Position numbers and translations under genes: made by a program. Shown one piece after another: positions 13,528 to 14,197 of a DNA stretch of 64,000 nt. The DNA is taken from IMG/VR virus record IMGVR_UViG_3300023174_000077, positions 58,095-122,094 of that record; one strand, 5' to 3'. Position 1 is the stretch's first letter; every line of letters begins with the position of its first letter. Below the pieces are notes generated by a model that saw nothing but the letters and a program-made list of their open reading frames with translations, was not told the origin of the DNA and did no database searches. This stretch comes from a virus.

Positions 13528-13857
13528 TTAATCTTCTTTAGTTTTATCATCGTATTTAAAATCTAAATAAAATAATTTACCACTTGGGCCTGACATTGGT
13601 TTTTTTATTGAGTTTAAATACTCTTTATATTCTTCTGTATCTTCTATTTTTAATTCTTCATAAGGATCATCAAATAGAATTGAATCTATTTTTCTATCCC
13701 TATTTATTGCTATAACTTTATTTTTAGCAATTTCTAATAATTTGGAATCACCATCTGCAATTGTTGATGCTGCAACTTTCCTAACAATAGGTAATATACT
13801 TGAAAATGAGCTATTTGTTGCGGTAAGTGTATTTGTCGGAGTATTTGATATTAGCAT
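13528..13857 (-). CDS. Small protein: major-capsid (gp23 Gol-region-like) fragment interrupted by the NRDRKIDSIL module
   Basis: ILPIVRKVAASTIAD...KPMSGPSGKLFYLDFKY resembles gp23 MVRRAIPNLIAFD..VQPMNSPTGQVFALRAVY. Confidence 0.6.
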   Translation of the reverse strand: MLISNTPTNTLTATNSSFSSILPIVRKVAASTIADGDSKLLEIAKNKVIAINRDRKIDSILFDDPYEELKIEDTEEYKEYLNSIKKPMSGPSGKLFYLDFKYDDKTKED

Positions 13858-13873
13858 ATTCTGTTATACAATT

Positions 13874-14197
13874 TTACAAGCTTCTTCCATCTTTTTTCCA
13901 TTTTTTTTGATTTTCCTCCGATAATCTCTTATATTCATCAGTATCTTCTATATTTGTTGCTGTAAAATCTTTATCATATAATATAGAATCAATTTTCCCT
14001 TCTCTATTTTTAGCAGTTATACTTGCAGCAAAATTATCAAACATTATAGTATTTAGGATATCTTTATCAATTTCTTCTTGAAATATTCTTGCGAGTTCCG
14101 TTTCAACATCTATACCACAATTTTGTTTTATATCATCTATTTCTTCTCTTGTAATCGAAGCTGTTATTCCTAAAATATTATTCATCGTCATCATCAA
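13874..14197 (-). CDS. Small protein: major-capsid-like fragment plus NREGKIDSIL module
   Basis: TREEIDDIKQNCGIDVETELARIFQEEIDKDIL resembles gp23 SIELAQDLRAVHGMDADAELSGILATEIMLEINREVV. Confidence 0.55.
   Translation of the reverse strand: MMMTMNNILGITASITREEIDDIKQNCGIDVETELARIFQEEIDKDILNTIMFDNFAASITAKNREGKIDSILYDKDFTATNIEDTDEYKRLSEENQKKWKKDGRSL

Follow-up and report, generated by a model that had tools for sequence, protein, structure and literature searches.

Two capsid-fragment genes behind a sliding-clamp gene

The 64,000-nucleotide (nt) stretch analysed here (the window) is the terminal 64 kb, positions 58,095 to 122,094, of IMG/VR record IMGVR_UViG_3300023174_000077, a 122,094-bp viral record from an uncultured giant phage with 27% guanine and cytosine (GC) and an estimated completeness of 22% (CheckV). 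Its minus strand carries two adjacent small genes, orf107 and orf109 (Table 1), whose predicted products join short segments resembling a T4-type major capsid protein (MCP) to a shared module of about 47 amino acids (aa). The original prediction for this locus, made from the nucleotide sequence, was that both open reading frames (ORFs) are built from fragments of gp23, the MCP of T4, fused to a common NRDRKIDSIL module; both lie where it placed them, on the same strand, and the peptide strings that it quoted are present in the translations. The start of orf107 lies within the final codons of the clamp gene, as do the ATG codons at 14194, 14191 and 14185, which are likelier starts than the TTG, and only 16 nt separate orf107 from orf109. 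That the two are real genes, tightly packed behind the clamp gene, is well supported.

Similarity to the capsid protein was found for both products, on different segments of the MCP. On its own, orf109 has no Pfam or PHROG capsid match; its strand segment is 58% identical over 19 aa to residues 110-130 of the MCP of the lineage (blastp). The orf109 family alignment (13 sequences) matches residues 5-137 of the lineage MCP with an hhalign probability of 99.1% (E = 5e-19), and its best match in the PDB is T4 gp23, at an E-value of only 0.05, with collinear stretches at gp23 4-46 and 114-134 (HMMER). Seven residues of the strand (P87, M88, S89, P91, L95, D99 and Y102) are invariant in the 13 sequences; in a wider set of 84, the module residues N52 and R53 never vary, and conservation is at least 90% at strand positions Y97, D99 and Y102. 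The orf107 product aligns with positions 150-199 of the Pfam Gp23 profile (PF07068) through its residues 11-66 (E = 1.6e-4, 21.6 bits, below the gathering cut-off of 24.4 bits) and matches the PHROG major head protein at E = 1.8e-4. Its family (11 sequences) aligns with the lineage MCP with an hhalign probability of 94.2% (E = 1.2e-7; residues 9-50 on MCP 347-388), and the MCP-derived segment is also detected by blastp (E = 0.003-0.004). The predicted homology to gp23 was thus borne out by profile comparison with the MCPs of the lineage. Relative to T4 gp23 and gp24 (PF07068, HK97 fold; PDB 6uzc, 7vrt and 1yue), the arms are homologous to the N-terminus, the first E-loop strand, and the second strand together with the spine helix.

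Each mini-protein holds only about 20-45 residues of capsid sequence, and the HK97 fold is incomplete in both: orf107 covers 150-199 of the 376 Gp23 profile positions, the orf109 family covers MCP residues 5-137, and the AlphaFold2 model of orf109 shows the two helices of the module only. Both also miss the Gp23 cut-off, orf109 having no match at all. It is well supported that the arms are homologous to MCP segments and that orf107 and orf109 are not capsid subunits; they are small stand-alone products that keep one interaction element of an MCP found intact in relatives.

Full-length capsid genes were taken from five related records, two of which are 97% and 95% complete (476 and 385 kb). All five hold a full-length gp23-type frame (562-617 aa as an open frame, 560-613 aa from the first start codon), none of these five proteins contains the module, and each record has 4-7 MCP matches in total, that is, the intact gene and 3-6 partial ones. 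As a control, a T4 portal profile gave one match in each of four records and none in the window's incomplete record. An intact MCP was likewise not found in the window's own record, as is expected of a fragment that is 22% complete. In Pfam the fragments give weak matches, to separate parts of the Gp23 profile (22-47, 162-201, 212-306 and 306-334), a complementarity that suggested an MCP encoded in pieces; this possibility was rejected, since the relatives keep an intact MCP without the module, and orf107 and orf109 are not halves of a split capsid gene.

The first of the two peptides had also been matched to the Gol region of gp23. The Gol peptide activates the Lit protease, which cleaves EF-Tu (PMC12926258). 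This match holds in part: the strand portion of orf109 aligns with gp23 114-134, whereas ILPIVRKVAASTIAD corresponds to the first half of Gol by eye only. Moreover, in orf109 and its family the Gol-equivalent stretch is divided by the 47-aa module into an N-arm part and a PMSxPxG strand part, so the predicted orf109 product holds no contiguous Gol peptide.

A shared module distinct from the capsid protein

The module occurs in orf109, orf107 and a third mini-gene at 10378-10629 and consists of a core, NR(D/E)xKIDSIL, followed by (I/M)E(D/E)T(E/D)(E/A)YK. That it is shared, as predicted, was confirmed with an independent query, a module-bearing ORF of the related locus L003 (positions 5532-5843), which in a tblastn search of the 122-kb record matched the copies in orf109 (E = 2.5e-12), ORF 10378-10629 (E = 2.4e-9) and orf107 (E = 4.7e-7). 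A strict motif, R[DEK].K[IL][DN].I[LF], has four matches among 196 ORFs of at least 60 aa, all within 4.6 kb (9585-14197), and a looser pattern has five, against a mean of 0.51 and a maximum of 3 in 200 shuffles. The third mini-protein carries the module between non-MCP flanks rich in YSEYI-type repeats; its family includes the database proteins P0013-P0016 and P0022, and its orthologue in the related locus L007 is 50% identical. A fourth, short form of the core, RDKKINDIL(KD), stands at the C-terminus of the 176-aa product of ORF 9585-10115, which has no Pfam match and is the sole tag-bearing protein in the window for which resemblance to neither capsid nor portal was detected.

Synonymous positions vary among the three long copies, and no extended stretch of nucleotides is identical between them, which indicates that the module is conserved as protein and not as DNA; the alternative that it is an RNA element or a mobile in-frame DNA insert was rejected on these grounds. 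Derivation from the spine helix of the MCP was rejected as well (hhalign probability of module against MCP, 0.06%). The module matches no Pfam or PHROG family, and its profile finds nothing in the PDB sequences better than E = 0.24. AlphaFold2, run on orf109 with an 84-sequence alignment, places a helix at residues 38-62, a loop and a second helix at 75-84 in the module, with block-mean predicted local distance difference test (pLDDT) values of 63-90 over residues 31-90; the capsid-derived flanks have no regular secondary structure, the N-arm-like segment being low-confidence coil. In this model the module is a helix-loop-helix, and a build of such a 'handle' carrying arms derived from the lineage MCP is well supported. 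A predicted complex of orf107 with orf109 (score 0.01, mark 0.32) gave no answer either way. What stands of the original prediction is a build of MCP fragments on a shared module that is itself not of MCP origin, in a lineage whose relatives also keep an intact MCP; the role it proposed, as decoys or assembly modulators, is conjectural and is weighed below.

A family of capsid fragments in giant phages

Relatives were gathered as 16 proteins from a collection of 5.8 billion proteins and 14 loci in IMG/VR; a related-locus search with orf107 alone gave no match. The closest are L007 (record G006) and L003 (record G001), to which orf109 is 64% and 56-58% identical and orf107 50-54% and 38-45% identical, respectively. 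Behind the clamp gene, both loci carry a helix-type gene (the orf107 type), a C-terminal-hairpin type, in which the module replaces the turn of the P-domain hairpin, and an N-type gene (the orf109 type) with a propeptide-like KWxPxL start. The hairpin and N-type genes of L007 are fused into one 250-aa frame. By comparison with these two loci, the window has no hairpin-type gene, and its N-type gene is without the initial third; orf109 thus differs from most of its relatives by the absence of the N-terminal KWxPxL part. In a further database protein, P0040, a capsid strand and a short tag are joined to a portal-like piece and an N-type fragment. That fragments of different types occur naturally fused, as in L007 and P0040, suggests that the pieces act at one place.

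The fragments lie scattered in more distant giant phages, where many bear no more than a short basic tag with the same core. Helix-type fragments have this tag at their C-terminus or close to it, and C-terminal-type ones have it within the hairpin loop. When three such genomes were scanned with the DNA pattern of the tag, 8 of 15 matches proved to be helix- or hairpin-type MCP fragments of 68-102 aa, the other seven being chance matches in long ORFs or non-coding frames. A search of 1.84 billion representatives with a module-only profile retrieved 240 protein clusters (at 50% identity) at E ≤ 1e-3, of which 55 reached E ≤ 1e-10. The 150 clusters listed span lengths of 52-325 aa, so no full-length MCP is among them. 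Of 146 new representatives, 59 match the MCP profile (E ≤ 1e-3) and divide into 44 N-type, 8 C-terminal-hairpin, 5 helix and 2 A-domain fragments; the other 87 fall below the cut-off, many of them being N-type by eye, and by motif (the module followed by the E-loop strand) the N-type accounts for 83 of 162. In the ESM Atlas, orf109 adjoins clusters of viral proteins of about 117 aa, one of which has 204 members, 58% with PF07068. Among 50,697 deposited phage records, six match the family, all of them uncultured genomes of 462-735 kb, with no cultured carrier; a blastn search of window positions 13000-15000 against deposited phages gave no match.

Record G004 (233 kb; loci L020/L026 and L036), whose MCP is more canonical (206 bits), encodes N-type and helix-type fragments that lack the module and are instead fused to a different shared N-terminal domain, beginning MEKLIYDYLSKNYYV and MEDFQRQEEIVRYLDRYYHV. 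Fragment display may use more than one carrier, given this second shared domain. Literature searches over full texts, and the accessible portions of the main texts consulted (including PMC13581612, PMC7824862, PMC7162821 and PMC12926258), yielded no account of natural capsid-fragment mini-proteins; supplementary protein-family tables of huge phages could list such clusters.

Constraint and rapid change

Comparison with orthologues, proposed in the original prediction as a check, gave ratios of non-synonymous to synonymous substitution rates (dN/dS) of 0.29-0.31 for orf109 and 0.43-0.82 for orf107, against 0.086 for the clamp gene, all below 1 and all rough, because synonymous sites are near saturation. 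Taken with the 240 clusters, these values indicate that orf107 and orf109 are not unconserved, decaying fragments, and their standing as conserved genes is supported. They change faster than their neighbours: identity to the G006 orthologues is 50-64% for the mini-proteins and 85-88% for the clamp, the UvsY-like ORF and the polymerase. Near-strain variation, taken from contigs of other lake metagenomes (40 of 58 variants listed), shows the same trend. The synonymous and non-synonymous variants listed number 2 and 6 in orf109, 2 and 7 in orf107, 8 and 2 in the clamp gene and 3 and 1 in the UvsY-like ORF, or, when pooled, 4 and 13 in the mini-proteins against 11 and 3 in the clamp and UvsY-like genes (Fisher p = 0.004). 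The non-synonymous variants listed all lie outside the module core and the strand. The module core and the capsid-derived strand are both under constraint, and the remainder is fast-evolving in the window's clade.

Two length variants were also seen among these contigs. In one, 15 nt at the clamp/orf107 junction (14160-14176) are replaced by 219 other letters; a different contig has a 9-nt in-frame insertion in orf109 at 13602-13607. Their positions point to length variation in the population at the edges of the capsid-derived arms.

Neighbouring replication genes and capsid-related ORFs

The row of minus-strand genes runs from the UvsY-like ORF through the clamp gene, orf107, orf109 and a 166-aa ORF to the C-terminal half of the DNA polymerase gene. 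The 262-aa clamp ORF had no match in sequence-family searches (Pfam, PHROG and further); it is called a sliding clamp because its Atlas model superposes on clusters of PCNA, the beta-clamp and gp45 with template-modelling (TM) scores of 0.70-0.72. Both parts of the predicted setting, directly behind a sliding clamp and within a replication cluster (here the weak UvsY-like ORF, the clamp and the split polymerase), hold.

Table 1 Features of the window discussed in the text, in order of position.
Feature	Position	Strand	Description
Compact MCP paralogue	2374-3252	minus	292 aa; Pfam Gp23 41.2 bits, above the 24.4 cut-off
ClpP gene	3260-3919	minus	243 bits; the MCP paralogue lies directly downstream
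176-aa ORF	9585-10115	minus	family without assignment; short tag MRDKKINDILKD at 9588-9623 ends the protein
Portal-like 94-aa ORF	10091-10375	minus	no module; residues 30-91 resemble the lineage T4-type portal 280-335 (weak evidence)
Third module-bearing mini-gene	10378-10629	minus	83 aa as database entry P0022; closely follows the C-terminal polymerase half
Family B DNA polymerase	10613-12034	minus	C-terminal half only; adjoins the GIY-YIG/NUMOD3 endonuclease gene
GIY-YIG/NUMOD3 homing-endonuclease gene	12236-13000	plus	divergent within the minus-strand row; Pfam
orf109	13528-13857	minus	N-type capsid-fragment mini-protein, 109 aa
First E-loop strand of MCP in orf109	13546-13602	minus	KPMSGPSGKLFYLDFKYDD; equivalent to T4 gp23 114-134, end of the Gol region
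Module copy in orf109	13609-13749	minus	insert that separates the N-arm segment from the first E-loop strand
MCP N-arm-like segment of orf109	13753-13806	minus	FSSILPIVRKVAASTIAD; aligns with lineage MCP LLPVAMKIAAQTIG in the family alignment
orf107	13874-14197	minus	helix-type capsid-fragment mini-protein, 107 aa from a TTG start
Basic tail of orf107	13877-13924	minus	LSEENQKKWKKDGRSL; conserved, follows the module
Module copy in orf107	13925-14065	minus	core NREGKIDSIL, then IEDTDEYK
MCP-derived segment of orf107	14045-14170	minus	GITASITREEIDDIKQNCGIDVETELARIFQEEIDKDILNTI; second E-loop strand, short helix, spine helix
Sliding-clamp gene	14178-14966	minus	262 aa; directly upstream of orf107; Atlas model
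UvsY-like ORF	14996-15511	minus	weak similarity

Split polymerase genes recur in the relatives G002, G003 and G005. In L003 (8680-11810) an intein-like insert apparently breaks the polymerase region behind its YADTDS motif; the insert starts CFSE..., contains other ORFs and ends ...VHNS before the polymerase resumes. The polymerase C-halves of the distant relatives were not found; their polymerases are split and only the N-halves were retrieved.

Two further ORFs of the window resemble head proteins. The compact MCP paralogue is predicted by AlphaFold2 to have a complete HK97 fold (pLDDT 79, predicted TM score 0.81) and matches T4 gp23 and gp24 in Foldseek at an E-value of about 3e-9. Its pairing with ClpP is kept in two relatives, where ClpP is 86% identical and the paralogue only 39-41%, and thus occurs in three genomes. 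Two of its relatives (P0051 and P0057) carry the module near their N-terminus, and the paralogue could be a vertex protein or a further member of the set of mimics. A homologue search with this ORF found only itself and one relative with 90% identity. The identical protein is recorded as P0163 on a 239,272-bp contig, which implies that a longer assembly of the same or a near-identical phage exists. The portal-like ORF has no Pfam match and weakly resembles the portals of four relatives at 29-45% identity (blastp E = 2.6e-4 to 0.003, for a nominal database of 1e6 residues).

Possible functions of the mini-proteins

We tentatively favour, at a probability clearly short of even, a trans-acting mimicry of MCP contact segments whose target would be either the partners in assembly or host sensors of the capsid. 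The orf109 product carries the N-arm segment and the first E-loop strand, the Gol-equivalent region split by the module, and that of orf107 runs from the second E-loop strand through the spine helix and the module to the basic tail. Lacking predicted structure of their own and matching strand-pairing and helix-packing elements of the HK97 fold, the arms would most plausibly bind in trans, to the usual contacts of those MCP segments, and the module would supply solubility, spacing or a docking surface. Two kinds of target fit about equally in our analysis. The first is the set of head-assembly partners (MCP subunits, scaffold and protease), in which case the effect would be a control of timing in the phage itself or sabotage of a co-infecting relative. 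The second comprises host proteins that recognise the MCP (Lit/EF-Tu-type or Avs-type sensors), which would be occupied without being triggered. An accessory, conflict-type role is favoured over a core structural one because gene content varies, evolution is fast in this clade and the genes lie among replication genes. A more specific version, in which the most conserved, sensor-visible elements of the MCP and perhaps of the portal are held on a common handle as 'pattern decoys', are made alongside the replication genes and fill capsid- or portal-sensing receptors or EF-Tu/Lit-type systems without setting them off, blinding host sensing before structural proteins appear, strikes us as unlikely.

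Several known systems offer partial parallels. MicroProteins and dominant-negative fragments are small proteins that keep one interaction surface and titrate the partners of a larger protein, and satellites encode capsid-homologue interference proteins, such as the capsid-redirecting homologue of SaPI. The logic is the same as that proposed here, a small stand-alone product with only the contact elements of a larger assembling protein; those examples, however, are eukaryotic regulators, engineered fragments or parasite-encoded homologues with a complete fold, whereas here the pieces would be the phage's own and sit on a shared module. T4 gp24 shows that T4-type phages keep capsid paralogues, of which the ORF beside ClpP is a complete example; unlike gp23 and gp24, the mini-proteins cannot form the fold, carry an unrelated helical module and sit among replication genes.

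Closer to the proposed second target, the Gol peptide comes from the same capsid region as the orf109 arms (by profile for the strand, by eye for the N-arm part) and is a short stretch of this protein able to act in trans (PMC12926258). Gol is nevertheless part of a full-length protein and triggers defence, whereas the orf109 stretch belongs to a separate gene product and is interrupted by the module. Sensors of the Avs/STAND families recognise phage MCP and portal (PMC13581612), the two proteins copied at this locus, the portal weakly so by ORF 10091-10375. In its accessible part, that work concerns host sensors and not phage counter-measures, and core folds and not short strands, and describes no phage fragment decoy.

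Several observations weigh against mimicry. Avs-type sensors are reported to recognise conserved core folds (PMC13581612), so a bare strand on a helical handle may escape them. In the clade of G002, G003 and G005, the N-type fragment shows no excess of change over the MCP (identities of 77-82% and 76-81%, respectively), which makes any arms-race signal clade-specific. The strain-variant counts given above are small and come from single low-depth contigs with 40 of 58 variants listed. Early expression is suggested by operon position only: no terminator-like sites were seen, promoter-like sites (39, against 30.5 ± 4.8 in shuffles) are not clearly above expectation and the motif TATAAATA is barely enriched (42 against 30.6 ± 5.4), so that these scans, uninformative at 27% GC, give no expression signal. 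Finally, the module, rather than the arms, may be the active part, because its tag also ends the 176-aa protein in which neither capsid nor portal similarity was detected. The equal rate in the sister clade and the internal position of the tag both help to keep our confidence in mimicry low.

If the module is the active part, the mini-proteins could be adaptors. The basic amphipathic core, NRxxKI[DN]xI[LF], would then dock as an address tag on a hub, and the arms would recruit capsid protein or proheads, an arrangement that we regard as rather improbable. The purpose, no less doubtful, might be to couple head assembly or packaging to replicating DNA or to deliver the cargo to the phage Clp protease, with the clamp, the Clp machinery and the membrane as candidate hubs. 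Several features fit such a role: the core is a short tag at or near the C-terminus, or in a hairpin loop, of the fragments in distant giant phages and also terminates the 176-aa protein; in this clade the four genes with the tag are all found in one 4.6-kb region that surrounds the clamp and polymerase genes; the clamp gene ends within orf107; and the compact MCP paralogue stands beside ClpP in three genomes. The core's pattern of basic residues followed by hydrophobic-x-x-hydrophobic-aromatic/aliphatic presumably resembles the clamp-binding tails of T4-family polymerases. Those T4-type tails, however, are C-terminal, whereas the core stands mid-protein in orf109 and about 30 residues before the end in orf107; tag-like patterns at C-termini are not enriched in the 122-kb record (5 of 156 ORFs; internal control windows gave 3.9 ± 1.8); and the N-type gene is not beside the clamp gene in distant relatives. 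Strong conservation of the strand, moreover, shows that the arms are functional too.

It is decidedly unlikely, in our estimate, that the mini-proteins are minor structural or internal head proteins, which would add a strand to the capsid lattice or the prohead core and act as cement, vertex-associated or packaged components. An equally dubious extension is that the N-type, through its propeptide-like KWxPxL, would be targeted like the MCP itself. Most N-type relatives do keep this N-terminus, and the family alignment matches T4 gp23 4-46; orf109, by contrast, lacks the propeptide-like part. The fragments correspond to lattice contact elements, a compact complete HK97 paralogue exists with two module-carrying relatives, and the capsids would be very large, as the near-complete relatives have 385-476 kb and the matching deposited genomes 462-735 kb. 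Yet the genes lie in the replication block and not in a head module, their content varies between close relatives and, in this clade, they evolve fast compared with their neighbours.

That the genes are debris, partial capsid-gene duplications or hitch-hikers of homing endonucleases that merely happen to be still open, is highly improbable and largely refuted by the conservation data: endonuclease genes do lie nearby (the GIY-YIG gene here and a T5orf172 gene beside the N-type gene in L014), the window's copy is truncated relative to L003 and L007, and the strain-level non-synonymous/synonymous ratio is near neutral, but 240 clusters share the architecture, residues of module and arm are invariant, dN/dS against orthologues is below 1, the insertion seen in another population is in frame, the module core and the strand are free of listed non-synonymous variants, and the module is conserved as protein. 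The probability left beyond mimicry and these three alternatives goes to some explanation that we have not considered.

Implications for giant phages

Whatever its function, the 47-aa carrier module merits definition, since it is conserved, is represented in 240 protein clusters and is missing from Pfam, PHROGs and the PDB. The family also supplies peptides (the Gol-equivalent strand, the spine helix and the P-domain hairpin) with which capsid-sensing immunity and T4-type head assembly can be probed. If the mimicry of MCP contact segments proposed here is true, phages would be turning parts of their own structural proteins into regulators or weapons, which would constitute a new class of counter-defence or inter-phage interference and would explain some of the many small 'hypothetical' genes in huge phage genomes.

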